Shown here in pieces: positions 21,302 to 64,000 of a stretch of 64,000 nucleotides of DNA. The position numbers and the translations under genes are program-made. Position 1 is the stretch's first letter. The number at the start of each line of letters is the position of its first letter. Under the pieces are notes generated by a model that was given only the letters and a program-made list of their open reading frames with translations, searched no databases and was not told the DNA's origin. The stretch is from an uncultured bacterium (lineage in GTDB: Bacteria > Krumholzibacteriota > Krumholzibacteriia > Krumholzibacteriales > Krumholzibacteriaceae): positions 1 through 64,000 of the forward strand of contig CAWFAD010000005.1 in NCBI GenBank assembly GCA_963813815.1, given 5' to 3'.

Positions 21302-23395
21302 TCAGTTCGGCGCAGGAGCCGTCGCGCGGCCCGCCGAAACGAGCGTCATGCGCGGAAGCTCGACGAAGAAACTCGCGCCCGCGCCGGGAGCGCTCCGGTG
21401 GCGGATGCGCCCCCCGTGGCTCTCCGCGATCTTGCGCGAGATCGAAAGGCCCATCCCCGTTCCGTCGGGCCTCGTCGTGAAGAACGGATTGTACAGCTTG
21501 TCCGCTATCTCCTCGCTGATGCCCGATCCCGTGTCGGCGAGCTCGATCTCGACGAATGCGGGATCGGCCCCCTCCCGGAGCGTCACGGTCACGCGGCCTC
21601 CCGGCGCGCACGCCTGGATGCCGTTGAGGGCGATGTTGAGTATCACCTGCTTGATCTGATCGCCGTCGAGAATGCAGCGATCGTCGGCGAGCGAGCTCTC
21701 GAACCGCAGATCGATCTCTCCCTCCTGCGCCCGATCCTCGACGAGGCGGAGCGCCTCCCGTACCACCTCGCCGAGCGCGAGCTCGACGGGGCACGGAGCG
21801 ACCGGGCGGGCGAAGGTGAGAAAGCTCTTGATGATGCCGTCGAGTCTCGCGATCTCGCCGAGAATGACGTCGAGATACGGGAGGCGATCGCCGTCCCCCG
21901 CGAGCTTCTCCCGCAGCACCTGCGCCGTCGTCGCGATGCCGGTGAGGGGGTTGCGGATCTCGTGCGCGATCCCCGCGGAAAGCTCCCCGAGCGAGCGCAG
22001 CCGGTCGGCCCGGCGGAGCTCCTCCTCCATCTCCTTCTGCGCCGTGAGATCCTCGAACACGACGATCACGGTCCGTCCGTGGTGCTCGTCGCGTGTGACG
22101 CGCGCCGTGTTGAGCCGCACCGGGATCGAGCGTCCGACCGGCCGCGCGAGAAGGCATTCGAAGGTGCAGCTCTCCTCGCTCCGCGCCAGCAGATGTTCGA
22201 AGATGCCCCCGTGACCGAATGGATTGGCGAAGAGATCGTCGAGCGGCCGGCCGAGCGGCGCGCCGCCGGCCAGCTCCCTCGCGCGCTCGTTGAGAAACTC
22301 GATCCTGCCGGAGCCGTCCGTCGTGAGGACGCCGCCGTTCATGTTCTCGAGCACCGTCTCGTTGAAGTCCTTGAGCTGCCGCAGGCGGCTGATGTTGACC
22401 GCGTTCGCGACCTCCTCCGCCAGAATCGTCTGAATCGTATTGAAAAAGTAATAGTCGTCCAAGTAGGCCTTCCGCGAACGGTAGGCCTTGCGCACGATCA
22501 GGAATCCGAGCCAGCGATTCTTGTAGAGAAGGGGCACGGCCGTATGGGACCAGGGGGCCGTCATGGAAAGGCACGTGCGAGCGGCGTCCGGCCCGACGGC
22601 GTCGAGATTGATGATCTCCGTGGGAAGAAGGTCGCACCGTTGCGCGGCCGCGAGACGCTCGACCGCTCCGTCCACGAACGCCGGCTCGAGCTGATACGCC
22701 GTCCGGACCTTGAGCACTTGCGCGTTGTTGCTGAACAAGAGGAGCGCCGAGCCGTCGGCGTCGAGATACCGGCAGAGCGCCATGAGAAAACGGTCGAGGG
22801 CGTCGCTCCAGTTTTCGTTCGTGCTGATTTCGCGGCCCATCTGATACAGCACCCGCAACCGCGTCACGTGGCGTTTCAGCAGCTCGTTCGCCTGTCGGAG
22901 CTCCTCGTTGATCCTCGCGAGCTCGCGGGCGAGCGCCTCCTTTCCCTCCTCGAGCCTGCGATTCTGCGTCTCGAGACGCACGAGGATTTCCTCGCTCTCG
23001 CTCCGCAGGCGGGCCTGGGCCACCGCCGACTCCACGGCCTCTCCGATCTTCGCGAGATCGAACGGCTTGAGGATATAGTCGAAGGCGTTCAGCCGCAGCG
23101 CCGCGATCGTGCTCTCGACCGACGCGAAGGCGGTCATGATGATGCAGGCCATCGAGGGATTCGTTTCCGAGAGCGGCGCGAGAAGATCGATGCCCGTCCG
23201 GTCGGGCAGCTTAAGATCCACGAGGGCGACGTCGAAGCGCTCATTCGCGGCGAGCGCCAGGGCCTCGGTCGCGGTGCCGGCGCCCGCGACACGGTATCCC
23301 CGGCCCGCGAGAAACTGAGAGACGAGCTCGAGGATCCCCGGCTCGTCGTCGACGACCAGTACCGAAGCGGACGCATGCTCCGACCGGTGAGCCAT
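21302..23395 (-). CDS. Hybrid sensor histidine kinase (REC-coiled coil-GAF-like-PAS-HisKA-HATPase)
   Basis: N-terminal REC (VVDDE, VDLKLP); AHEIRNPL H-box; NIALNGIQA, DTGSGI and FFTTR..GTGMGL boxes; no TM segment seen. Confidence 0.93.
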   Translation of the reverse strand: MAHRSEHASASVLVVDDEPGILELVSQFLAGRGYRVAGAGTATEALALAANERFDVALVDLKLPDRTGIDLLAPLSETNPSMACIIMTAFASVESTIAALRLNAFDYILKPFDLAKIGEAVESAVAQARLRSESEEILVRLETQNRRLEEGKEALARELARINEELRQANELLKRHVTRLRVLYQMGREISTNENWSDALDRFLMALCRYLDADGSALLLFSNNAQVLKVRTAYQLEPAFVDGAVERLAAAQRCDLLPTEIINLDAVGPDAARTCLSMTAPWSHTAVPLLYKNRWLGFLIVRKAYRSRKAYLDDYYFFNTIQTILAEEVANAVNISRLRQLKDFNETVLENMNGGVLTTDGSGRIEFLNERARELAGGAPLGRPLDDLFANPFGHGGIFEHLLARSEESCTFECLLARPVGRSIPVRLNTARVTRDEHHGRTVIVVFEDLTAQKEMEEELRRADRLRSLGELSAGIAHEIRNPLTGIATTAQVLREKLAGDGDRLPYLDVILGEIARLDGIIKSFLTFARPVAPCPVELALGEVVREALRLVEDRAQEGEIDLRFESSLADDRCILDGDQIKQVILNIALNGIQACAPGGRVTVTLREGADPAFVEIELADTGSGISEEIADKLYNPFFTTRPDGTGMGLSISRKIAESHGGRIRHRSAPGAGASFFVELPRMTLVSAGRATAPAPN

Positions 23396-38533: not shown

Positions 38534-39637
38534 TCACCGATCCGTCCGGCGGTAGGCGAACCGCGCCCGGCAGGTGCCCTCGCTCGAAACCATGCACGGC
38601 CCGAAGGGATCCTTCGGCGTGCAGGAGCGGCCGAAGAGGCCGCATTCCTCGGGCTCGATCTCTCCGAGCATGACGCGATGGCATTGGCAGCCCGGACGGA
38701 CGTCGACCGCCTCGCCCTCCGTCGAAAGGCCGAGAGAGCGGACGGCGTCGAGATGCCCGTACTCCTCCCGCAGCGCGAGACCGGACGCCGGAATGACGCC
38801 GATGCCCCGCCACGTCGCGTCCGCAGGGGCGAAACAGCGGTCGATCGTCCCGCGCGCCCTCGGGTTCCCCTCGTCGCGAACCGCCCGCCGGTACTCGTTC
38901 AACACCTCCGGCCTCCCGCCTTCGGCTATCCGCGCGAGGAGCGCGTGCACCCCCCGCAGGATATCCACGGGCTCGAAACCGGCGATGACCGACGGAACGC
39001 CGAACTCCTCATCGAGAAAGCGGTAGCCGCTGCGTCCTATGATGACGCTCACGTGGCCCGGAAGGACGAACCCGTCGATCCTCCCCGGCCCGCGCGCGAG
39101 AAGGAAGCGCAGCGCCGGAGGAATCACGCGAAGGGACGGAATGATGAAGAAATTCCGAGGAGGATCCGCCGCCAGCGCCGCGGCGATCGGCGCCGCGGTC
39201 GTCTCGAAGCCGACGGCCATGAGCACGACGGACGCGCCGGGACGCTCGCGCGCAATCGCGATCGCGTCGGACGGCGAATAAACGACCCGGACGTCGGCTC
39301 CCTCGGCGCGCGCCCGCTCGAGGGAGCCCTCCGTCGCCGGAACGCGCATCATGTCGCCGAAGGTCGCGAGAACGGTGTTCTCGCGGCGCGCCGCAGCCAT
39401 CGCGCGATCGACGTCGCGCGCCGGACACACGCAGACGGGGCAACCCGGTCCCGCGATGAGGCGCACGCCGCCGGGCAGGAGCGAGCGGATGCCGGCGCGC
39501 GCGATGGCGTGCTCGTGCGTGCCGCACACGTGCATGAGGGTGATCGCGCGGTCGACACGGAGCGCCCCTATGGCGCGGGCGATCGCGGCCACCGCCTCCG
39601 GGGAGCTCCATCCGTCGATCGCGCGCGGATCGATCAC
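38534..39637 (-). CDS. hypD: Hydrogenase maturation protein HypD
   Basis: MHVCGTHE, GPGCPVC, GFETT, PGHVS and GPCMVSSEGTC. Confidence 0.97.
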   Translation of the reverse strand: MIDPRAIDGWSSPEAVAAIARAIGALRVDRAITLMHVCGTHEHAIARAGIRSLLPGGVRLIAGPGCPVCVCPARDVDRAMAAARRENTVLATFGDMMRVPATEGSLERARAEGADVRVVYSPSDAIAIARERPGASVVLMAVGFETTAAPIAAALAADPPRNFFIIPSLRVIPPALRFLLARGPGRIDGFVLPGHVSVIIGRSGYRFLDEEFGVPSVIAGFEPVDILRGVHALLARIAEGGRPEVLNEYRRAVRDEGNPRARGTIDRCFAPADATWRGIGVIPASGLALREEYGHLDAVRSLGLSTEGEAVDVRPGCQCHRVMLGEIEPEECGLFGRSCTPKDPFGPCMVSSEGTCRARFAYRRTDR

Positions 39638-39870
39638 GCCGGGCCTTCCCCCCTCCCGGCCTCGTAGACCCGCCGGATGAGATCGAGCGTCTCGAGCGCC
39701 TCGCGCTCGTCGATGCGCTCGATGGCGTAGCCGGCGTGGATGAGGACGTAATCGCCGATCGCCACGTTATCGATCAAATCGAGGCGGATGCGTTTCCGCA
39801 CCGAGCTGCTCGCCGCGACGGCGTCGTTGCCGTCGCGCTCGACGATCAGCATGGGAATTCCGAGACACAT
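39634..39870 (-). CDS. hypC: Hydrogenase assembly chaperone HypC
   Basis: MCLGIP N-terminus and GDYVLIHAGYAI. Confidence 0.96.
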   Translation of the reverse strand: MCLGIPMLIVERDGNDAVAASSSVRKRIRLDLIDNVAIGDYVLIHAGYAIERIDEREALETLDLIRRVYEAGRGEGPA

Positions 39871-40532
39871 CAGCGTCCCCCCGCCGAGGCGGCGAATCGC
39901 TCGACCCAGGCCTCGAATCGATCGAGCCCCTCTCCGGTCACGCACGAAAGCTCGACGATGTCGAGACGCGGCTGTATTTCGAGCGCCTCGCGCCGCGCCT
40001 TCGCGACGTCGAACGAAACGTGGGGCAGCAGGTCGATCTTGTTCAGCACGAGAAGCTGCGCCTCGTGAAACATGAGGGGATACTTCTTCGGTTTGTCGTC
40101 CCCCTCCGAAACGCTCAGCAGCATCACGCGGGCGTCCTCCCCGAGATCGAACTCCGCCGGACAGACGAGGTTCCCCACGTTCTCGATGAGCAAAAGATCG
40201 ATCGCGTCGAGATCGAATCGGTGGAGCGCCGAGTGCACCATCGCCGCGTCGAGATGGCACACGCCGCCCGTCTGTATCTGGTACACCGGAACGCCGAGGG
40301 CCGCGACGCGCTCGGCGTCGGCGGTTCCTTGAATGTCCCCCTCGATGACGCCCACGGCCCGATGCTTCGCGAGCAGGGGGATGGCGCGGACGAGGAGCGA
40401 CGTTTTGCCGGCCCCCGGAGCGCTCATGAGATTGAGCGTCGCGACGCCGTGGGAACGCAGATGCTCTCGGTTCTCCGCCGCGATCACCCGGTTCCGGTCC
40501 CGCAGATCCTCTCCGATCCGTATTTCGTGCAT
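39870..40532 (-). CDS. hypB: Hydrogenase nickel incorporation GTPase HypB
   Basis: SAPGAGKT, EGD, GVCHLDA, ENVGNLVCPA, EGDDKPKKYP and NKIDL. Confidence 0.97.
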   Translation of the reverse strand: MHEIRIGEDLRDRNRVIAAENREHLRSHGVATLNLMSAPGAGKTSLLVRAIPLLAKHRAVGVIEGDIQGTADAERVAALGVPVYQIQTGGVCHLDAAMVHSALHRFDLDAIDLLLIENVGNLVCPAEFDLGEDARVMLLSVSEGDDKPKKYPLMFHEAQLLVLNKIDLLPHVSFDVAKARREALEIQPRLDIVELSCVTGEGLDRFEAWVERFAASAGGR

Positions 40533-40543
40533 CGCCCCTTCCT

Positions 40544-40915
40544 CTATTCCTTCGCGCTCTCGTCCCCCGGCTCGTCGTCCGTCAGGATGTAGTCGACTTC
40601 CATTTCCCGTCCGCCGAGAATATCGATCTCGGTCGAGCCGCACCTCTCGCAGGCGAAAACGAAATTTGCCGGCCGCGCCTCCGCCGCGCACCCCCGGCAC
40701 CGGACGCGGAGCGGAACGCTCTCGCATTCGAGACGACCGCCCTGGGCGACGGTGCCCGGCGCGAGCGCCTCGAAGGCGAAGCTCAGCGCGTCGATATTGA
40801 CCCCGGCCATCTCGCCGATGCGCAGATGCACGACGCGGACGCGCTCGCCGCCCGCCTCGCGAGCCGCGCGCCCGACGATGGCGAGCAGATTTCCCATGAG
40901 AGCGGTTTCATGCAT
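40544..40915 (-). CDS. hypA: Hydrogenase nickel metallochaperone HypA
   Basis: MHE N-terminus, two CxxC pairs and GGREM. Confidence 0.95.
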   Translation of the reverse strand: MHETALMGNLLAIVGRAAREAGGERVRVVHLRIGEMAGVNIDALSFAFEALAPGTVAQGGRLECESVPLRVRCRGCAAEARPANFVFACERCGSTEIDILGGREMEVDYILTDDEPGDESAKE

Positions 40916-41414
40916 TCGGCCGCTTCCGTTCGCCGAGCCCGCGCGATACGCGCGTCGAGGCACGCCCCAAAACCTCCCCCGCGATCTCCTCGACGAGTCC
41001 CGGCAGCGCCCCGGCGACGGCCTCCGTGCACTCTTCGCCGAGCGTCAGCGCGTCGGCCACCTGCACGGCGTACACCTTCACCTCGGCCGGCATCGCCAGT
41101 CCGAGCCGGCGCCCGAGCGCGAGCGCGGTCACGAGATCGATGTCGTGGAGGGAGGCGAGCCTCGCGGTGATGCGGAGATCGTCGGGCTCGAGGCGGAAGA
41201 CGGTTCCCGGATCCTCTCCCTCGAGCTGGATCGAGTCGATGATAAAAGCGCGGTCGTACCCGCGCAGCAGCTCGACGAGATCGAGCCCCGCGCTCGCCGA
41301 TTCGCGGCAATCGGCGGCGCCGTCGACCCGGCCGGCGAGCGCCCGGACGGCGTACACGCCGACGCCGTCGTCCCGGAGAATGGTGTTGCCGAGACCGAGA
41401 ATGAGCGTTTTCAC
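40908..41414 (-). CDS. Hydrogenase maturation protease
   Basis: LGLGNTILRDDGVG, IIDS and SLHD motifs. Confidence 0.93.
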   Translation of the reverse strand: MKTLILGLGNTILRDDGVGVYAVRALAGRVDGAADCRESASAGLDLVELLRGYDRAFIIDSIQLEGEDPGTVFRLEPDDLRITARLASLHDIDLVTALALGRRLGLAMPAEVKVYAVQVADALTLGEECTEAVAGALPGLVEEIAGEVLGRASTRVSRGLGERKRPNA

Positions 41415-41442: not shown

Positions 41443-42906
41443 TCACGACCGAGAGATCGTGCGGAGCGTCTCGCCGGCGCTGTTTTTCAATTCGACAACG
41501 AGAGGCATCTGACCGGGGAGGCTGTGCGTCGCGCAGCTGAAACAGGGATCGAAGATGCGGAACGCCATCTCGACCGTGTTGAGAAGCCCTTCGGTGACCG
41601 CGCCGCCGGCGCCGATGAACTTCTGGGCGGCCTTCTTGACCGCCATCGAGATCGGCGCGTTGTTGTTCGTCGTGCCGACGATGAGGTTCGCCTTCGTGAC
41701 GATGCCCCGTTCGTCGGTGACGAAGTGGTGCGTGAGCGTCCCGCGCGGCGCTTCGACGATGCCCACTCCCTCGGACGGCGTCGCCGACGGGATGACGCGG
41801 ACGTTCGGATCCAGTATCTCCGGATCGGCGACGAGCTCGGCGAGACGTTCCGCCGCGTAGACAAGCTCGATGAGCCGCGCCCAGTGGTGGGCCATGAGCT
41901 TGTGCACGGGCTTGCCGCCGAAGGTCGCGTACATCCTCTCGTACGCCTCCTGCGCCTTCGGGGTCGCCATGCCGACCGAGGCGTTCAGCCGCGCGAGCGG
42001 CGCCGCCTGATAGATCGAGGTGCCCTTCCCTTCCTTGAAGCCCTGCCAACCGAGCTTCTTGAGGTACGGGAACTTGAGATACGAGTACGGCTCGACGTGC
42101 TCGGCGACGTGCTCGAGGTACTCCGATTCGCGGTACCGGTCGATCTCCGCGCCCTCCGGATCGACGACGCGGACCGTCCCGTCGTAGAGCGTGACGCGGT
42201 TGCGGTCGTCGACGAGCCCCATGTAGTTCGTTACGAGCTCGAAGCCGTCGCCGAGGATGAGATCGAGGTAGGCCTTGTTCTTAAGCACGATGTCGTCGAA
42301 AAGCTTGAGACCAAGCTCGCCGAAGGAAACCAGCCCCGGAACGAAACCCTTGATCGTTTCGAGATCCGCCGGCGCGAGCGCCCGCGAGACCCCGCCCGGA
42401 AGGTTCCAGACCGGATGCGTCGCCCGCCCGCCGACCATCTGCTGGATGAGCTGCGTGATCTCGCGCTGGCGGATCACCTCTCGCCCGAGATCGAGGCCCA
42501 CCTTGCCGATGAGGCCGAGGATGTTGCGCTCGGCCGGGGGAGCGCCCGGCCCGACGACGAAATCGGGCGCCGCGAGCGCGTAGAAATGCGCCGTGTGGCT
42601 GTGCATGAAGTGCGCCATGTAGTACAGCTCGCGCAGCTTCGCGGCCACCGCCGGAATCTTCACCTTGTATACTGCATCTACGGCCTTACCCGAGGCCATG
42701 TGGTGTGCGGCCGGTCAAACCCCGCAGATGCGCGTGACGACCCTCGGTATCTCCTCGACGGGCAGACCTTCGACGAACTTTTCGAATCCCCTCAGCTCGG
42801 GGATCTGGAGGTACGCGTTCTCAACCGCGCCCTCGTCGTTCACGAAGATCATGATCTTCCCGTGCCCTTCGAGGCGAGTGATCGGGTCGATCGCGATGCG
42901 CTTCAT
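41443..42906 (-). CDS. mvhA: [NiFe]-hydrogenase large subunit MvhA (group 3c type), 487 aa, with in-frame UGA at codon 64 (putative selenocysteine)
   Basis: DPITRLEGH, ELRGFE, RICGV-TGA-PAAHH all in one frame; EAPRGTLTHH; C-terminal DPCFSCATH plus a cleavable tail. Confidence 0.92.
42680..42699 (-). promoter_or_regulatory. Putative bacterial SECIS element
   Basis: Stem ATGGCCT/AGGCCGT with loop CGGGTA; the loop starts 22 nt downstream of the UGA. Confidence 0.65.
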
Positions 42907-43856
42907 ATCCTCTTCCTCCTCGGTATCGATGACGCGAGGCTGAACCGGTGGAGCGTCGTGAGCGGCGCCACCACCGTGTCGAGCGTCGCATTGATCTCGT
43001 TTTCCTCCTTGCCGTCGATGACGGACGCGAGCGCGCTCAGCATCTTGAGCCCCTGATCCGTCACGCCGTCGAGCGGCCCGTAGCAGCCCCGGCAGGGCAC
43101 CCCCGACTTGATGCAGCGCGAGCCGCACCCCGAACGCGTCGCCGGACCGAGGCAGAGGTACCCCTGCTCGAGAAAGCACGTTTCGGGATCGGGGAGCTTC
43201 TCGTGCGTGCGGTAGATCCGCGTGATCTTTTTTTCGCTCTTTATGCGCGCGCATTCGTCGCAGAGGGCGCGTTCGCCGGCGCCGATCACGCTCCCCTTCC
43301 GAGGCAGCATGTCGTCTGCGATGAGCCCGATCGCCGAATAGATCTGGAGGGAGGCGGGCGGACAGCCGGGGATCGTGTAATCGACCTCGACCACCTGCGA
43401 GAGCGTCTTGACGGTATTGTAGAAGCGCGGCAGCTCGAGCTCGAGCCCGTCCTGCACGGTCCGTTCCTCCGGCAACACTCCGCCCGGGTTGTCGGTCGAT
43501 TCCGATTCGATATAAACGCGGCGCAACGTCTCGTCGCGCGTGAACATGTTCGAGAGCCCCGGGATGCCCCCGACGTGGGCGCAGGCGCCGAGAGCGATCA
43601 TCATTTTCCCCTTCCGGCGGAGGAGCTTCGCGATCTCCTCGTTTTCCGAATTGCGGATGGCGCCGCTGAAGAACACCGCGTCGAGAAAACCGTCGGGCAT
43701 GGCGCGCACGTCGTCGTACTTGAAATCCATCGCGATCGGCCAGAAGAGGATGTCGGCCGCCCCCGCGATCTCGAGAATCTTTTCGTGCGTGTCGAGAATC
43801 GCGACGTCGCATCCCCCGCACGCCGCTCCCCAATATATGCCGATCTTGAGCTTCAT
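42903..43856 (-). CDS. mvhG: [NiFe]-hydrogenase small subunit MvhG
   Basis: ACGGC, GACA..GGIPGL, IPGCPP, LCDEC, CFLEQGYLCLGPATRSGC and PCRGCYGP. Confidence 0.95.
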   Translation of the reverse strand: MKLKIGIYWGAACGGCDVAILDTHEKILEIAGAADILFWPIAMDFKYDDVRAMPDGFLDAVFFSGAIRNSENEEIAKLLRRKGKMMIALGACAHVGGIPGLSNMFTRDETLRRVYIESESTDNPGGVLPEERTVQDGLELELPRFYNTVKTLSQVVEVDYTIPGCPPASLQIYSAIGLIADDMLPRKGSVIGAGERALCDECARIKSEKKITRIYRTHEKLPDPETCFLEQGYLCLGPATRSGCGSRCIKSGVPCRGCYGPLDGVTDQGLKMLSALASVIDGKEENEINATLDTVVAPLTTLHRFSLASSIPRRKRI

Positions 43857-43860
43857 CTCG

Positions 43861-44337
43861 TCATACTCCGGTTTCTTGCGCCGCCGCGCCTTCGCCGTGC
43901 AGGACGTCCCGCTTCATGCTTTCGAGCACCGACTCCTTGAGAGCGAGCGGGCCGAGGGCGCGGATCTGCTCGGTGAACTCGTCGACGACGCGTCCGAAGC
44001 GATCCCCCTCCGATGCGGAGATCCACTCGAGACGCACCCTCTCGGGCTCGATGCCGTACTCGGGAAGGACGCGTCTGAGGAGGAGATACCGCCGCAGCGC
44101 CTTGTAATTTCCCTCCAGATAATGGCAATCCCCCGGGTGGCATCCGCCGATGAGCACCCCGTCGGCTCCCTCCGCGAGCGCCGTCAGGATGAACACGGGA
44201 TCCACGCGACCGCTGCACATGACGCGTATCGACCGGACGTTCGGGCTGTACTTCACGCGCGCGGTCCCTGCCAGATCGGCGCCCGTATAGGTGCACCAGT
44301 TGCAGAGGAACCCCACGATTCTCGGTTCAAACGCCAT
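43861..44337 (-). CDS. mvhD: MvhD [2Fe-2S] subunit
   Basis: FLCNWCTYTGADLAG, VMCSGRVD, GCHPGDCHY and WISASE. Confidence 0.97.
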   Translation of the reverse strand: MAFEPRIVGFLCNWCTYTGADLAGTARVKYSPNVRSIRVMCSGRVDPVFILTALAEGADGVLIGGCHPGDCHYLEGNYKALRRYLLLRRVLPEYGIEPERVRLEWISASEGDRFGRVVDEFTEQIRALGPLALKESVLESMKRDVLHGEGAAAQETGV

Positions 44338-44362
44338 AGTTCGTTCCCTCTCGACTTCGCCC

Positions 44363-46381
44363 TCAGGTCACCGACAGCAGACCCTCGATCTCGGCGAGTA
44401 TCTGCTCGTTGCCGAAATGCTTGGCCTTGATCGCGTTGCTCGGGCACGCCGCCACGCACGTGCCGCATCCCTTGCAGAGCGCCTCGTTGATAACGCTGAC
44501 CTTCTTCTCCTCGTCGAACCTGATCGCGAGATACGGGCAGAGATTGTTGCAGATGCGGCAGCCCGAGCAGCGCTCCTCGTCGATCTCGGCCGTCGCAGCC
44601 TCGATCTCGATCTGCCCGCGCATGATCATGGAGAGCACGGCGCTCGAGGCCGCTGACGCCTGCGCGACCGTGTCGGGGATGTCCTTCGGCGACTGGCACG
44701 CGCCGGCGATGAAAACGCCGTCCGTCGCCGTCGACACCGGCCCGAGCTTCGGATGCTTTTCGATGATGAAGCCGTCCTTGCCGACGCTCACGCTGCATTT
44801 CTTCGCGAGCTCGGGAAGCCCCGCGGGCGCCTCGAGACCCGTGCAGAGAATCACCATGTCGACGGGAATGCGCCGCACGACGCCGACGAGCGTATCCTCG
44901 ACGCGCACGACGAGTTTGCCCTTTTCCCCCTCGTGTATCGGCAGGTCGGTGATCTCGCCGACCTTTCCGCGGATGAAACGGACGTCCTCGCCGAGCAGGC
45001 GGTCGTAAAACTCCTCGTACCCTTTGCCGAAGCACCGCAGGTCGATGTAGAAATTGTAGACCTCAGCCTCGGTCTTTTCCTTGATGAGGTGCGCGAACTT
45101 GAGCGCGTACATGCAGCAGACGCGCGAGCAGTACTCGTGCGCGTCCTTGTCGCGGCTTCCGATGCAATGGATGATGCCGATCGCCTTCGGCGTCGAGCCG
45201 TCGGCGAGAACGATCTTTCCGTCCGTGGAACCCGCGGCGCAGTTCATCATCTCGAACTCGATCGCCGTCACGACGTTCGGCAGGACGCCGTAACGGTAGC
45301 GCTTCATGGCCGCCGGATCGTAGGTCCGGAGCCCCGCGGCGATGATGATGTTGCCGACCTCGAACTCGTGAACGCGATCCTCCATGTCGTACCGGATCGC
45401 CTTGCGCTCGCAGATCTTCTCGCAGACGCGGCACTTTCCTTCCTGAAAGTAGCGGCACGAATCGCGGTCGATGACGGGCACCGCCGGAACCGCTTGCATG
45501 AACGGCATGTAGATGGCCGGCGCCGGATTCTGCTTGCCGCTCGATTTCTTGGCCCCGCGCGTGCCGATCGTGAGCTTGCGGTGGATGTTCGTCTCGTCCT
45601 CCGGGATGCGGCAGCCGGGGCAGCGTTCCCAGCACATGCCGCAGCCGTTGCAGAGCTCCCGGTCCACGTAGCGGGCCTTCTCGCGAATCTTCACCTTGAA
45701 GCTGCCGACGAATCCGCTCACTTCTTCGATCTCGGAGTAGGTGAGCAGCTTGATGTTCGCGTGCTGGCCGACCTGAACCATTCTCGGCGTCAGGATGCAC
45801 GCCGCGCAGTCGAGCGTCGGAAAGGTTTTGTCGAACTTCGCCATGTGTCCGCCGATCGAGGGCTCTCGTTCGACGAGCACGACCTCCTTGCCGGCGTCGG
45901 CGAGATCGAGGGCCGCCTGTATCCCCGCGATCCCCCCGCCGATGACGAGCGTGCGCGGGTTGATGGGCACGACGCGCTTCTCGAGCGGCTCCTGCCACGT
46001 GGACCGCCGGGCCGCCGCCGCGAGAAGGGCCTTCGCCTTCTCGGTGGCCGTTTTCCCGTCGATATGAACCCAGGAGCACTGCTCGCGGATGTTCGCCATC
46101 GTGAAGAGGTACGGGTTGACGCCCGATCGCTCGCATACCTTTCGGAACGTGTTCTCGTGCATGAGGGGCGAGCAAGAGGCTACGACGACGCGATCGACGA
46201 GCCCCTCCCGGATGTCCTTTTCGATCATGGCCTGACCGGGATCGGAGCACATGAACTTGTAATCGCGCACGATCTCCACGTTCGGAAGGGTTTTCGCATG
46301 TTCGACCACGGCGTCGACGTCGATTTTGCCGGCGATGTTCGTGCCGCAGTGACAGACGTATACTCCTATCCGTTCAGCCAT
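44363..46381 (-). CDS. hdrA: Heterodisulfide reductase subunit A (FAD, Fe-S)
   Basis: YVCHCGTNI, NIREQCSWVH, GGGIAG, KTFPTLDCAAC, HCIGSRD, YCSRVCC, PKDIPD and a C-terminal 2x[4Fe-4S] domain. Confidence 0.97.
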   Translation of the reverse strand: MAERIGVYVCHCGTNIAGKIDVDAVVEHAKTLPNVEIVRDYKFMCSDPGQAMIEKDIREGLVDRVVVASCSPLMHENTFRKVCERSGVNPYLFTMANIREQCSWVHIDGKTATEKAKALLAAAARRSTWQEPLEKRVVPINPRTLVIGGGIAGIQAALDLADAGKEVVLVEREPSIGGHMAKFDKTFPTLDCAACILTPRMVQVGQHANIKLLTYSEIEEVSGFVGSFKVKIREKARYVDRELCNGCGMCWERCPGCRIPEDETNIHRKLTIGTRGAKKSSGKQNPAPAIYMPFMQAVPAVPVIDRDSCRYFQEGKCRVCEKICERKAIRYDMEDRVHEFEVGNIIIAAGLRTYDPAAMKRYRYGVLPNVVTAIEFEMMNCAAGSTDGKIVLADGSTPKAIGIIHCIGSRDKDAHEYCSRVCCMYALKFAHLIKEKTEAEVYNFYIDLRCFGKGYEEFYDRLLGEDVRFIRGKVGEITDLPIHEGEKGKLVVRVEDTLVGVVRRIPVDMVILCTGLEAPAGLPELAKKCSVSVGKDGFIIEKHPKLGPVSTATDGVFIAGACQSPKDIPDTVAQASAASSAVLSMIMRGQIEIEAATAEIDEERCSGCRICNNLCPYLAIRFDEEKKVSVINEALCKGCGTCVAACPSNAIKAKHFGNEQILAEIEGLLSVT

Positions 46382-46382
46382 G

Positions 46383-47258
46383 TCATGCTCCCTGGAATAT
46401 TTCCTTGATCGGTTTCGTGAGCTTCACCGCGAGACGGTTGAGTCCGAGCTTCTCGGGCGGCAAGCCCAGCGCCACGCCGATGAGCTGGGTGAAGTAGAGA
46501 ATCGGAAGATTGAATTTCGTCTTGAACAGGGCGTTCACCTTTCCCTGGTACACGTCGAGATTCATCTGACAGAGCGGGCACGTCGTGACGAGGCAGTGCG
46601 CCCCCCTGCGCTCGGCGTCGAGGAGCAGGTTCCTGCAGAGCCGCATGGCGAGCTCCTCCTGCGTCCCCATGAGGGATGCGCCGCAGCAGGCGGTTTTCAT
46701 CCGGTAATCGACGTTTTCCGCCCCGAGCTTCTCGATGAGCTTGTTCATCTTGACCGGATCGTCCGGATCGTCGAAATCAGTCTCGGGACGGACGATCTGG
46801 CATCCGTAGTACGGCGCCACCTTGAGCCCCGTGAGCTTCTTCACGACGAGCGAGCCGATCGTGTCGCAACCGACGTCGCTGCACACCACGTCGAGCAGGT
46901 GGCGGACCCGCACGTTGCCGCTGTAGCTGAGGCCTCCCGCCTCGAGCGCCTGGCCGATCTTCTTGCGCAGATCCGGATATTCGGCGAAATACCGGTTCGT
47001 CTTGTTGAGAACGGTGTAGCAGGCGCTGCACGGCGTCACCACGTCGCGGTGATGCTGCTCGGCGAGCGCGAGGTTGCGCGCCGAGATCGCGAAGCTCATG
47101 AGCTCCTTCACCGACATGTAGGCGGTCGCGCCGCAGCAGTTCCAATCCTCGAGCTCCTCGAGCTCGAGCCCGAGCGCCGGCGCGATCGCGTCGATCGAGT
47201 CCCGATAGATGTTGGCGGTCGCGCGGACGGAGCAGCCGGGATAGTACGTGTATTTCAT
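46383..47258 (-). CDS. hdrB: Heterodisulfide reductase subunit B
   Basis: Two CCG domains (YYPGC..WNCCG..PCSAC and YYGC..CCG..CPLCQ). Confidence 0.95.
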   Translation of the reverse strand: MKYTYYPGCSVRATANIYRDSIDAIAPALGLELEELEDWNCCGATAYMSVKELMSFAISARNLALAEQHHRDVVTPCSACYTVLNKTNRYFAEYPDLRKKIGQALEAGGLSYSGNVRVRHLLDVVCSDVGCDTIGSLVVKKLTGLKVAPYYGCQIVRPETDFDDPDDPVKMNKLIEKLGAENVDYRMKTACCGASLMGTQEELAMRLCRNLLLDAERRGAHCLVTTCPLCQMNLDVYQGKVNALFKTKFNLPILYFTQLIGVALGLPPEKLGLNRLAVKLTKPIKEIFQGA

Positions 47259-47834
47259 CTAGATCTCCCCGAGCTCGTCGACCCTCTTGAGTATCTTTCG
47301 CAACTGCTGAATGTTCTTGATGCGATGCGGCAGGAGCGGGAGACGCCCGTTCGAGAAGAGTCGCCAGCCCTGCGGAACGAACTTGAACGCATGATGCGGT
47401 TCGGCTTCGAGAATATACCGCGCCATGAGCTCCGTCTCGTGGTTGCGGCCGTACTTGTTGACCATGCGCGCGAAGTTACGCGAAAGCACGACCGCTTTCT
47501 TCCCCTTGGTCTTGCCTTCGGCGACGGCCAGGCGCTTGAGGGCGTACATGACGTCGGTGATCTTTATGTTCTTCGGACACCGCACCGAGCAGGTGTAGCA
47601 GGACGAGCAGTACCATATCGTGTTCGAACGGAGGACCTCGTCGCGGAAGCCCGCCCGGATGAGGGAAAAGATCTTGCGCGGGCCGTGGTCCATGACGTAG
47701 CTCAGCGGGCAGGAGCTGCTGCACGTTCCGCACTGGATGCATTTCTTGATTTCGTGCCCTCCGGGGAGGGAGTAGATCTCGGTCAGAAAATCATGATCGA
47801 GCTTGTATTCGGCCACGATGTCCCTGTCGAGCAT
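47259..47834 (-). CDS. hdrC: Heterodisulfide reductase subunit C
   Basis: CIQCGTCSSSCP and WYCSSCYTCSVRCP; AGGAG SD. Confidence 0.95.
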   Translation of the reverse strand: MLDRDIVAEYKLDHDFLTEIYSLPGGHEIKKCIQCGTCSSSCPLSYVMDHGPRKIFSLIRAGFRDEVLRSNTIWYCSSCYTCSVRCPKNIKITDVMYALKRLAVAEGKTKGKKAVVLSRNFARMVNKYGRNHETELMARYILEAEPHHAFKFVPQGWRLFSNGRLPLLPHRIKNIQQLRKILKRVDELGEI

Positions 47835-63556: not shown

Positions 63557-64000
63557 TCATCCCTTGACGCACACGAGCGGCCGCAGCCGCGCGACGCGGC
63601 GGCTCACGAGCGCCCCCTCCATGATCCCGACCACGCGCTCCACGTCCTTGTAGGCTCCGGGGGCCTCCTCCGCGGCGCCCGGTTTGCTGTGGACGCGCAC
63701 GACGATGCCGCACCGGCCGAGCTCGGCTATGACGTTCTCGCCCCGGTACTCCCGAAGGGCCTGCTTGCGCGACGCCCGGCGTCCCGCTCCGTGAATCGAG
63801 CTCCCGAACGTCTCCTCCATCCCCCGCTCCGTTCCGACGAGAACGAACGAGCTCGTGCCCATCGTCCCGCCGACGAGCACGGGCTGCCCGACGCCGCGAT
63901 AGCGCTCCGGCATTCCGGCGCGTCCCGCCGCGAACGCGCGCGTGGCGCCTTTGCGGTGAACGAGGAGCTCCCTCTCGACGCCATCGACGGAGTGCTTCTC
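63557..64000 (-). CDS. rtcB: RtcB-family RNA ligase (C-terminal part; 5' end outside the window)
   Basis: VHRKGATRA, PVLVGGTMG, SSIHGAGR, EEAPGAYKDV and LRPLVCVKG. Confidence 0.93.
   Translation of the reverse strand, partial: EKHSVDGVERELLVHRKGATRAFAAGRAGMPERYRGVGQPVLVGGTMGTSSFVLVGTERGMEETFGSSIHGAGRRASRKQALREYRGENVIAELGRCGIVVRVHSKPGAAEEAPGAYKDVERVVGIMEGALVSRRVARLRPLVCVKG

Follow-up and report, generated by a model that had tools for sequence, protein, structure and literature searches.

Selenocysteine (Sec) variants of the hydrogenase N-terminal motif, namely CXXU, UXXC and UXXU, have been described together with SECIS hairpins in group 4 [NiFeSe] hydrogenases (PMC13582414). Both a pre-existing hairpin and a remnant SECIS have been discussed for these enzymes in the same work. 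Citing Baltazar et al. 2011, it describes the residue at the second place of the N-terminal motif as bridging Ni and Fe, and states that Sec there had earlier been reported for one group 3 sequence only. For the hairpin itself, the Fig. 2 legend of PMC13188914 summarises the bacterial SECIS (bSECIS) model of Zhang and Gladyshev 2005. In this model the upper stem has 4-16 bp and carries an apical loop of 3-9 nt; a G occupies loop position 1 or 2, or both, and the next base is usually G or U; 16-37 nt separate the UGA from the apical loop; and the minimum free energy (MFE) is no higher than -7.5 kcal/mol.

Here we describe a hydrogenase large subunit gene, mvhA, within a window comprising the whole 64-kb stretch of DNA that was analysed. 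The gene is predicted to encode a rare N-terminal CxxU group 3c [NiFeSe] hydrogenase, a type common in Krumholzibacteriota, and the hairpin at 42699-42680 is very probably the bacterial selenocysteine insertion sequence (SECIS) for its UGA codon 64. It is comparison with homologues, rather than the single sequence, that carries this reading beyond chance.

The mvhA gene and its in-frame TGA

The gene lies on the minus strand in an operon with the order hdrC-hdrB-hdrA-mvhD-mvhG-mvhA, an order also found in related loci.

41443..42906, minus strand: mvhA-like [NiFe]-hydrogenase large subunit gene, 488 codons with a single in-frame TGA read through
42717-42715, minus strand: in-frame TGA at codon 64, in place of the second Cys in RxCGxC, the N-terminal nickel-binding motif (CxxU form)
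42903..47834, minus strand: upstream operon genes hdrC (47259-47834), hdrB (46383-47258), hdrA (44363-46381), mvhD (43861-44337) and mvhG (42903-43856), none with an in-frame TGA
38534..41414, minus strand: downstream maturation genes, namely a hydrogenase maturation protease (40908-41414), hypB (39870-40727), a hypC-like gene within 39634-40260, and hypD (38534-39637)

The ATG of mvhA overlaps the stop codon of mvhG (ATGA). The product belongs to Pfam PF00374 (E 6e-36), finds its best NCBIfam match in VhuA with 395 bits, below the equivalog cut-off of 800 bits, and has 7t2r_D and MvhA (5odc_F) as its nearest solved chains. The enzyme would be of group 3c, Mvh-type and Hdr-linked, a subgroup name taken from operon context and not from a classifier. 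At the N-terminal motif the translation reads RICGV-U-PAAHH and aligns with RICGICP of 7t2r_D, which sets codon 64 opposite the second Cys of RICGIC. The gene thus has the N-terminal CxxU arrangement, with the putative Sec as the second residue of RxCGxC. The C-terminal motif is DPCFSC, with Cys retained, rather than the canonical DPUxxC. A reassigned TGA does not account for the codon here, because 31 of the 43 open reading frames of the window stop at TGA, mvhA and mvhG included.

Scans of these 43 frames, covering 64 kb of the genome, found no selA, selB or selD, and no tRNA-Sec was found in the 64-kb window; an odd ARAGORN call at 21683-21773 is not a tRNA-Sec according to Rfam. No stop codon aligned to a Cys was seen in hdrA, hdrB, mvhD, mvhG or the protease, either in the window or in 80 related loci. 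A GC3-based screen of the window for other genes with an in-frame TGA missed the mvhA site, and its 18 candidates resemble antisense frames.

A hairpin 3' of the UGA

Directly after the TGA come a short spacer and the hairpin.

42714-42700, minus strand: 15-nt spacer from TGA to hairpin, codons 65-69 (PAAHH), with varying synonymous sites
42699-42680, minus strand: putative SECIS hairpin, ATGGCCTCGGGTAAGGCCGT, codons 70 to 76.2 (M A S G K A V)

The preliminary description of the minus strand is borne out: a 5' arm (42699-42693), a 6-nt loop CGGGTA (42692-42687) and a 3' arm (42686-42680) form a 7-bp stem with one U-G pair, which begins 15 nt past the TGA and places the loop 22 nt from it. The isolated hairpin has an energy of -9.2 kcal/mol. 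Loop and stem lengths, a G at loop position 2 followed by another G, the distance to the loop and the energy all fall within the four constraints of the bSECIS model. Location agrees as well; as in the consensus, the hairpin sits within the coding region directly 3' of its UGA, here one that aligns with Cys in homologues. It differs from the consensus in that a loop sub-pattern pairing the first with a later base is absent (C and U in mvhA), no conserved lower stem was found, and no curated RNA family matched. At gathering thresholds Rfam returned only two tRNAs for the whole window, and a permissive scan of 42500-42900 (E <= 10) gave four chance-level matches, none of them to a SECIS family. 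A search of the window for a second copy, using the 16-nt core with up to 3 mismatches, recovered only the hairpin's own site, with 1.1 chance matches expected.

The SECIS of E. coli fdhF likewise lies just past its UGA and has a G-G-U run in a 6-nt apical loop, as does the mvhA hairpin; SelB binds its upper stem-loop. The fdhF stem starts 11 nt after the UGA, compared with 15 nt in mvhA, and contains a bulged U that the mvhA stem lacks.

Taken in the mvhA sequence alone, the hairpin is weak evidence, barely above chance. Folding z-scores are +0.51 for a 71-nt piece and +0.58 for a 50-nt piece, with 127/200 and 142/200 shuffles at least as stable, respectively; the MFE structure of the 50-nt piece is a competing fold, and the hairpin shows in its centroid only. 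The window is GC-rich and contains 1365 UGA trinucleotides. A simple hairpin that agrees with the bSECIS model comes after 133 of them (9.7%), and for 66 (4.8%) its energy is -9.2 kcal/mol or lower. Five of the seven stem pairs are dictated by the amino-acid sequence, and all seven are possible in 6 of 28 homologues that have a Cys codon at this position and encode the same peptide, MASGKAV; in part, then, a hairpin of such shape simply follows from the protein. The peptide-dictated pairs, the insignificant z-scores and the 4.8% frequency speak for an explanation in which the hairpin is irrelevant to decoding and arises from the conserved peptide MASGKAV being encoded in GC-rich DNA, while the TGA reflects either pseudogene decay or misassembly. 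The homologues described below make that explanation extremely improbable.

Codon usage around the hairpin is also anomalous, as had been noted: 7 of the 16 sense codons from codon 63 to codon 79 end in A or T, compared with a gene-wide fraction of 0.125. No 16-codon window in mvhA has a higher value, and only the two that begin at codons 63 and 64 reach it; with boundaries set post hoc, the binomial P is 0.002.

Conservation among homologues with TGA or Cys codons

The comparison set comprises 81 homologous genes (80 loci and the window), of which 22 have TGA at codon 64 (21 loci and the window) and 59 have TGC or TGT. The TGA genes are mutually related, 14 of them falling in one clade; relatives occur in one deltaproteobacterial and one Bacillota genome. 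Conservation of the hairpin in TGA-bearing homologues had been set in advance as a refutation test, and the 20-nt hairpin proves identical in 22/22 TGA genes, with variation at the flanking synonymous sites. It is exact in only 1/59 Cys genes, that of locus L014.

The frozen stretch stands out within the gene. Across the TGA genes, 202 columns have an invariant degenerate amino acid; 190 of these vary synonymously and 12 do not. Five of the 12 are codons 71-75, in the hairpin, which form the sole consecutive run of frozen codons in the gene, the other invariant codons being isolated. No run of five arose in 200,000 permutations, and a subset of 11 diverse genes gave the same result. The codons GCC TCG GGT AAG GCC are kept in all TGA genes across gene-wide A/T-ending fractions of 0.10 to 0.41, so codon bias is not the cause. 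In the adjacent spacer, for example, codon 67 is GCA in 12, GCG in 4, GCT in 4 and GCC in 2 of the 22 genes. The 28 Cys genes that encode MASGKAV use 12 different loop sequences, with CGGGTA in two of them and the exact 20 nt in L014 alone.

The preliminary description had held the RNA sequence here to be under selection, and frozen synonymous sites confined to the TGA genes bear this out; it had also preferred recoding to sequencing error, and the 22/22 conservation favours the same choice. As a trace of such selection, the A/T-ending codons that it listed fare unevenly: GGT73, in the loop, is invariant, and each of the other six is found in between 12 and 20 of the 22 genes. Most are gone from L012 and L033, where 2/16 and 3/16 codons, respectively, end in A or T. 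A suggested extension of the stem by GCA/TGC has to be dropped. Its third pair is broken in 6/18 distinct rows, the other two are fixed by alanine codons, and the extension is absent from the RNAalifold consensus of the post-UGA region, in which the hairpin is the only element. None of the seven stem pairs varies among the TGA genes, leaving no changes to count as covariation; since the pairs are invariant, the predicted structure draws on conservation and not on compensatory change.

The same comparison bears on the notion of a lesion or assembly error. The TGA recurs in 21 independent assemblies as well as the window, and the five synonymous sites are frozen in TGA genes only. Reading frames stay open past the TGA in every TGA gene, continuing for about 420 more codons to a stop in 20/22 and running off the locus in L011 and L016. 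Met70, where gene callers restart after the TGA, is the exact start of 63 among the 120 best protein clusters.

A different explanation grants the read-through and dispenses with SECIS: a near-cognate tRNA would decode the UGA in a weak UGA-C context, and the hairpin would act as a general roadblock or hinder the release factor. C does follow the UGA in 22/22 genes, but a proline codon dictates it, and it is likewise present in the Cys forms. The small size of the hairpin and its lack of an Rfam match, along with the finding of no Sec machinery in the window, fit this explanation. A roadblock, however, needs stability only, yet synonymous positions of the unpaired loop (the G of TCG and the T of GGT) are invariant in 22/22 genes, and alternative codons that would preserve the pairs (GCT/AAA, GCT75) are never used in TGA genes. 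The UGA, moreover, sits exactly on a metal-ligand Cys, a typical Sec/Cys pair. We consider SECIS-independent read-through very improbable on these grounds.

One Cys gene deserves comment. L014 has TGC and yet keeps the 20-nt hairpin, much like the remnant SECIS-like structures reported in Cys genes descended from Sec ancestors (PMC1794560, Fig. 4 legend). Compared with the remnants in that legend, the one in L014 differs in being letter-perfect, and it therefore points to a very recent change or a polymorphism.

Decoding, a possible larger fold and known hydrogenases

With the hairpin read as a SECIS, decoding would proceed as follows. With UGA codon 64 in the A site, the ribosome would enclose the mRNA behind it and some 12-15 nt ahead, which would leave the 7-bp stem and 6-nt loop, 15 nt downstream, able to fold at the mRNA entrance. 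The loop and upper stem would be bound by SelB together with its Sec-tRNA(Sec); delivery of selenocysteine to the UGA would compete with release factor 2 and yield a full-length large subunit with a Cys-x-x-Sec N-terminal metal-binding motif. From established bacterial Sec decoding we infer SelB binding, Sec as the inserted residue and release of the hairpin by the ribosome.

The same hairpin could in principle recruit SelB with a tRNA that carries cysteine, a tRNA(ReC)-type recoding of UGA that would produce an ordinary CxxC hydrogenase. Genomes that encode N-terminal Sec-type group 4 hydrogenases are reported to contain tRNA(ReC)-like tRNAs, and work is cited in which such tRNAs recode UGA given a downstream SECIS (PMC13582414). 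Nothing in the window identifies the tRNA used for the mvhA UGA, and no tRNA(ReC)-type tRNA was seen there. We regard cysteine insertion as improbable; a costly recoding signal kept in 22 species for a residue that TGC would give offers no obvious benefit, and TGC is a one-base change away, as L014 shows.

Two further segments flank the TGA and hairpin.

42670..42679, minus strand: 3' flank, from the last base of codon 76 through codon 79 (GTA GAT GCA GTA), A/T-ending and kept in most GC-rich relatives
42722..42731, minus strand: candidate 5' partner (tentative), codons 59.2-62.2 within R-I-C-G, a 10-bp complement of 42674-42683

The 3' flank may serve to insulate the hairpin, or it may pair with sequence 5' of the TGA. 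Among 467 degenerate columns in the GC-rich clade of 14 genes, only 10 retain an A/T-ending codon in 85% or more of the genes, six of them within codons 63-84. For the flanks alone across all 22 TGA genes, 4/12 columns are conserved compared with 25/185 (P 0.08, not significant). Pairing of 42731-42722 with 42683-42674 appears in the MFE structure of codons 55-100 and would leave the hairpin's 3' arm masked; as a tentative alternative, only the first 5 nt (42727-42731) would pair, with 42674-42678, and so close a three-way junction. All 10 upstream pairs are possible in 15/22 TGA genes compared with 1/59 Cys genes, and L012, L015, L016 and L040 can form only 8/10. An RNAalifold consensus retains the 5-bp closing helix together with the SECIS hairpin, that is, it prefers the junction with the SECIS folded. 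The 10-bp pairing showed no covariation support and did not exceed a shuffle control.

What is predicted for the hairpin depends on the RNA included. When nine upstream codons are present the hairpin is out-competed, with a median probability of 0.01 and a value of at least 0.5 in 4/22 genes. Excluding the RNA 5' of codon 69 or 64 raises the four central G-C pairs to a median probability of 0.93-0.99; with upstream RNA excluded and six 3' extents considered, the probability is at least 0.5 in 19-22 of 22 TGA genes, compared with 3-13 of 59 Cys genes. One could imagine the SECIS as part of a larger ribosome-operated fold, in which the upstream arm masks the 3' arm in free mRNA until unwinding by the ribosome frees the SECIS just in time at the mRNA entrance. 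We rate such a fold as unlikely. If it were true, masking would account for the rare codons GTA76 and GAT77 kept in GC-rich relatives.

The mvhA TGA, read as a programmed recoding site and not an error, calls for the annotation of one 488-residue selenoprotein instead of a 418-residue fragment, and the same reannotation would apply to the 63 of the best 120 protein clusters that start at Met70. Sec at codon 64 would mark a whole lineage of Hdr-linked hydrogenases in Krumholzibacteriota. For finding further genes of this kind the frozen 20-nt element is a simple DNA signature, and L014 offers a natural Sec-to-Cys pair for enzyme comparison. A literature search did not find Krumholzibacteriota and selenocysteine together; the articles naming both Krumholzibacter* and selen* have a single taxon mention each and, judging by title, none concerns such hydrogenases. 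Krumholzibacteriota are absent from the text of PMC13582414.

Close counterparts are the group 4 hydrogenases, which share with mvhA, as predicted, Sec in the N-terminal nickel-binding motif and, in the hairpin, a loop G at a third codon position (PMC13582414). Their SECIS-like stem-loop, about 50 nt downstream, counts as a further likeness, as do their Cys-type relatives, which keep a hairpin-like sequence and lose the loop G synonymously (PMC13582414). Where they are membrane-bound and energy-converting, however, mvhA would encode a cytoplasmic group 3c enzyme of the Mvh type from an hdrCBA-mvhDGA operon. With the canonical [NiFeSe] hydrogenases of groups 1 and 3 (HysA; VhuA/VhuU, FruA) the mvhA product has in common its PF00374 family, VhuA as best NCBIfam match and, as predicted, Sec as a ligand of the Ni-Fe site. 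In those enzymes the C-terminal motif begins with Sec (UxxC), whereas in mvhA Sec would be the second residue of the N-terminal motif, with Cys at the C terminus. In essence, the type of signal is already known, and its position in the enzyme is unusual.

The mvhA gene and the hairpin after its UGA

The mvhA gene closes the catalytic part of an operon ordered hdrC-hdrB-hdrA-mvhD-mvhG-mvhA, and is followed by a maturation protease, hypB, hypC and hypD. Its codon 64, an in-frame TGA, occupies the second cysteine position of the N-terminal RxCGxC nickel-binding motif and aligns to the Cys of RICGICP in 7t2r_D, the closest solved large subunit; the C-terminal motif of the product is an ordinary DPCFSC. 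The mvhG stop and mvhA start share ATGA at 42903-42906 (minus strand), and this overlap makes it probable that the two genes are translationally coupled. Upstream of the mvhA ATG, a stop-free in-frame ORF overlapping mvhG reaches 43833. The features under study are as follows.

42906-41443, minus strand: mvhA, [NiFe]-hydrogenase large subunit (Pfam PF00374), 488 codons, ATG at 42906 and end at 41443
42717-42715, minus strand: in-frame TGA, codon 64, within RICGV-TGA-PAAHH
Between TGA and hairpin, minus strand: spacer of 15 nt
42699-42693, minus strand: hairpin 5' arm, 7 nt
42692-42687, minus strand: hairpin loop, CGGGTA
42686-42680, minus strand: hairpin 3' complementary arm

The preliminary description had placed a SECIS-like hairpin and a codon-usage anomaly directly after the TGA, and both are present, the hairpin exactly where it was reported. 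Its stem comprises seven pairs, including one U-G, and its loop lies 22 nt from the TGA. Across codons 63-79, A or T is the last base of 7 of 16 sense codons, against 12.5% gene-wide, a count reached in no other 16-codon stretch of mvhA. The hairpin fits the bacterial SECIS model, as set out in the Fig. 2 legend of PMC13188914, in all four respects: a loop of 6 nt on an upper stem of 7 bp (model 3-9 nt and 4-16 bp), a G at the second loop position with another G after it, a UGA-to-loop spacing of 22 nt (16-37 nt) and an energy of -9.2 kcal/mol (at most -7.5 kcal/mol). The finer sub-pattern, a pairing of the first loop base with a later one, is absent.

By itself, a single sequence offers weak evidence for such an element. 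Folding was no more stable than in dinucleotide shuffles (z +0.51 for 71 nt, +0.58 for 50 nt), and the minimum-energy fold of the 50-nt piece is a competitor in which CGGCC, directly after the TGA, pairs with the hairpin 3' arm. When all 1365 UGA trinucleotides of the window were scored for an unbulged hairpin fitting the published model, 133 (9.7%) were followed by one, and 66 (4.8%) by one at least as stable as -9.2 kcal/mol. A search of the hairpin region against Rfam returned no match.

Synonymous sites in TGA-type and Cys-type homologues

Among the best 120 clusters of a protein search, 63 have MASGKAVD as their exact start and so begin at Met70, the point at which a gene caller restarts after a TGA; a further 55 are full-length proteins containing CGxC, and two take other forms. 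One truncated cluster, P0118, begins MASGQAVD instead, and this Lys-to-Gln substitution would change the A of the closing U-A stem pair. An alignment of the window protein and 15 truncated forms was then used to scan GTDB species genomes, where 250 stretches matched and 192 encoded relatives, of which the best 80 were kept. Within this set, genomes of Candidatus Krumholzibacteriota and UBP1 supply the closest relatives, at 92% protein identity. Counting the window, codon 64 is TGA in 22 of the 81 genes (hereafter TGA genes) and TGC or TGT in 59 (Cys genes). The frame stays open after the TGA in all 22; 20 reach a stop about 420 codons later, and in the loci L011 and L016 it leaves the end of the locus.

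All 22 TGA genes carry the same 20 nt, ATGGCCTCGGGTAAGGCCGT, so that the hairpin is conserved in TGA-bearing homologues, as had been asked of it beforehand. Synonymous sites on either side vary: codon 67 occurs as GCA, GCG, GCT and GCC, codon 68 as CAC or CAT, codon 76 as GTA, GTC or GTT, and codon 77 as GAT or GAC. Of 202 degenerate columns with an invariant amino acid, 190 vary synonymously and 12 do not; five of the 12 are consecutive (codons 71-75, GCC TCG GGT AAG GCC) and the other seven isolated. Label shuffling gave a run of five in none of 200,000 trials, and a subset of 11 diverse TGA genes presents the same picture. Codon bias does not account for this, since the share of A/T-ending codons ranges from 10% to 41% across the 22 genes, and codons 71-75, including the non-preferred GGT, are the same in all.

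The Cys genes serve as a control for what the protein alone dictates. The peptide MASGKAV, which fixes five of the seven stem pairs, is encoded by 28 of the 59 with twelve different loop sequences; two of the 28 have the loop CGGGTA, and a single locus, L014, has the exact 20 nt. Only two pairs depend on synonymous choice, that between the third bases of codons 71 and 74 and that between the G of ATG and the third base of codon 75. All seven pairs are possible in six of the 28 genes, and six pairs in 19. With five pairs fixed by the peptide, a hairpin of this shape is latent in the protein sequence. The TGA genes stand out because none of their five free positions changes, two unpaired loop bases included, and because alternatives that would preserve the pairs never occur; the absence of any variation at the seven stem pairs leaves no compensatory changes to count. 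This pattern bears out the earlier suggestion that the RNA is under selection; it points to selection on both hairpin stability and loop identity, and would fit an RNA element bound by protein.

Folding context and a possible larger fold

The predicted behavior of the hairpin depends on the RNA upstream of it. When the folded stretch covers codons 55-100 and so takes in nine codons before the UGA, the hairpin is out-competed: its four central G-C pairs have a median probability of 0.01, and 0.5 is reached in only 4 of 22 TGA genes. Once the RNA 5' of the UGA, or 5' of codon 69, is excluded, the hairpin dominates (median probability 0.93-0.99), and across six downstream extents probabilities of at least 0.5 occur in 19-22 of 22 TGA genes compared with 3-13 of 59 Cys genes. 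Folds lacking upstream RNA would correspond to a ribosome whose A site holds the UGA, a situation in which the hairpin may come to dominate. Overall, we consider it very probable that this hairpin is a true bacterial SECIS element.

The stem extension by GCA/TGC proposed in the preliminary description does not hold: alanine codons dictate two of its pairs, and in 6 of 18 distinct rows the remaining pair cannot form; applied to the region after the UGA, RNAalifold returns the 7-bp hairpin and nothing else. With codons 71-75 left out, flank conservation across the 22 TGA genes is not significant (4/12 vs 25/185, P 0.08). Within a GC-rich clade of 14 genes, the A/T-ending codons around the hairpin stand out all the same: a codon of this type is kept in at least 85% of genes at only 10 of 467 degenerate columns, six of which are codons 63, 73, 76, 77, 78 and 84. 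Loci L012 and L033 have lost most A/T-ending codons of the hairpin region (2/16 and 3/16), and a less robust hairpin is predicted for both; these are two cases only.

A ten-base complementarity links 42731-42722, in the R-I-C-G codons shortly upstream of the TGA, with 42683-42674, the 3' arm and its flank (minus strand). In free RNA this pairing is predicted to prevail over the hairpin, and 15 of 22 TGA genes vs 1 of 59 Cys genes could form all ten pairs; it lacks covariation and does not exceed a shuffle control. RNAalifold offers as an alternative a junction in which the hairpin stays folded, with a 5-bp closing helix (complete in 15/22 TGA vs 1/59 Cys genes) and a 4-bp hairpin bearing the UGA in its loop (20/22 vs 4/59). 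These contrasts arise in part because amino acids differ between the clades, and a larger fold including the region before the UGA is a tentative lead.

Distribution and relation to known selenoproteins

When the 81 proteins (the window and the best 80 of 192 relatives) are placed on a maximum-likelihood tree, TGA forms appear at three places, requiring at least four TGA/Cys state changes. Nineteen fall in a 28-gene clade centered on Krumholzibacteriota; the remainder are two paralogues from one deltaproteobacterial genome, L029 and L040, and L033 from one Bacillota genome. The paralogues (L029:386 and L040:1508) lie on two contigs of MFD03726.bin.2.155 and share the hairpin within different flanks. 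The hairpin is identical across all TGA forms, down to 65% protein identity, and on the sequences compared the element is frozen over at least three phylum-level lineages. L014 (2741-2810, plus strand; Krumholzibacteriota) has TGC at codon 64 and a letter-perfect 20-nt hairpin, the sole such case among the 59 Cys genes. It is probably either a very recent Sec-to-Cys change, the best reading, or a polymorphism, and provides a natural Sec/Cys pair.

Reassignment of TGA is ruled out, as 31 of the 43 ORFs in the window end in TGA. No selA, selB or selD was found among these ORFs, and no tRNA-Sec in the 64-kb window. An ARAGORN call at 21683-21773 (minus strand), a 91-nt 'tRNA-???' whose anticodon has two bases, falls within a sensor histidine kinase ORF (21302-23395); it matched no tRNA or tRNA-Sec in Rfam and is probably a false positive. 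At 63557-63913 (minus strand) an RtcB-family RNA ligase is represented by its C-terminal part, for which the top NCBIfam match, an intein-containing RtcB model, scores 143 bits, far under the cut-off; the gene extends upstream in another frame segment, and the adjoining ORF leaves the window end.

In methanogens and Deltaproteobacteria, the selenoproteins of such operons are usually HdrA and MvhD. Neither hdrA nor mvhD (43861-46381, minus strand) contains an in-frame TGA, nor do their counterparts in the 80 loci, leaving mvhA alone with one; no second selenoprotein gene was found in the operon, or in the flanks of the 80 loci. Our literature search found no pairing of Krumholzibacteriota with selenocysteine, and supplementary files of the cited papers may list group 3 cases.

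Bacterial selenoproteins of the mvhA/frhA type in hdrA-linked operons are already described in PMC1794560 and PMC2702500, and a table row of PMC13188914 lists MvhA/VhuA/VhuU with a UxxC motif. The canonical Sec position in such hydrogenases is this C-terminal UxxC, whereas here it would be the N-terminal codon 64. The perfect hairpin of L014 resembles the remnant SECIS structures in the Fig. 4 legend of PMC1794560. Among group 4 hydrogenases, N-terminal CXXU, UXXC and UXXU forms are reported in PMC13582414, where the SECIS follows the same pattern: its loop carries a G at the third position of a codon, and Cys relatives have lost this G through synonymous change. Citing Baltazar et al. 2011, that paper says that the residue at the CxxU position forms a bridge between Ni and Fe, and that Sec there had been reported in a single group 3 sequence. 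This kind of SECIS is itself known, and the mvhA hairpin is a further case.
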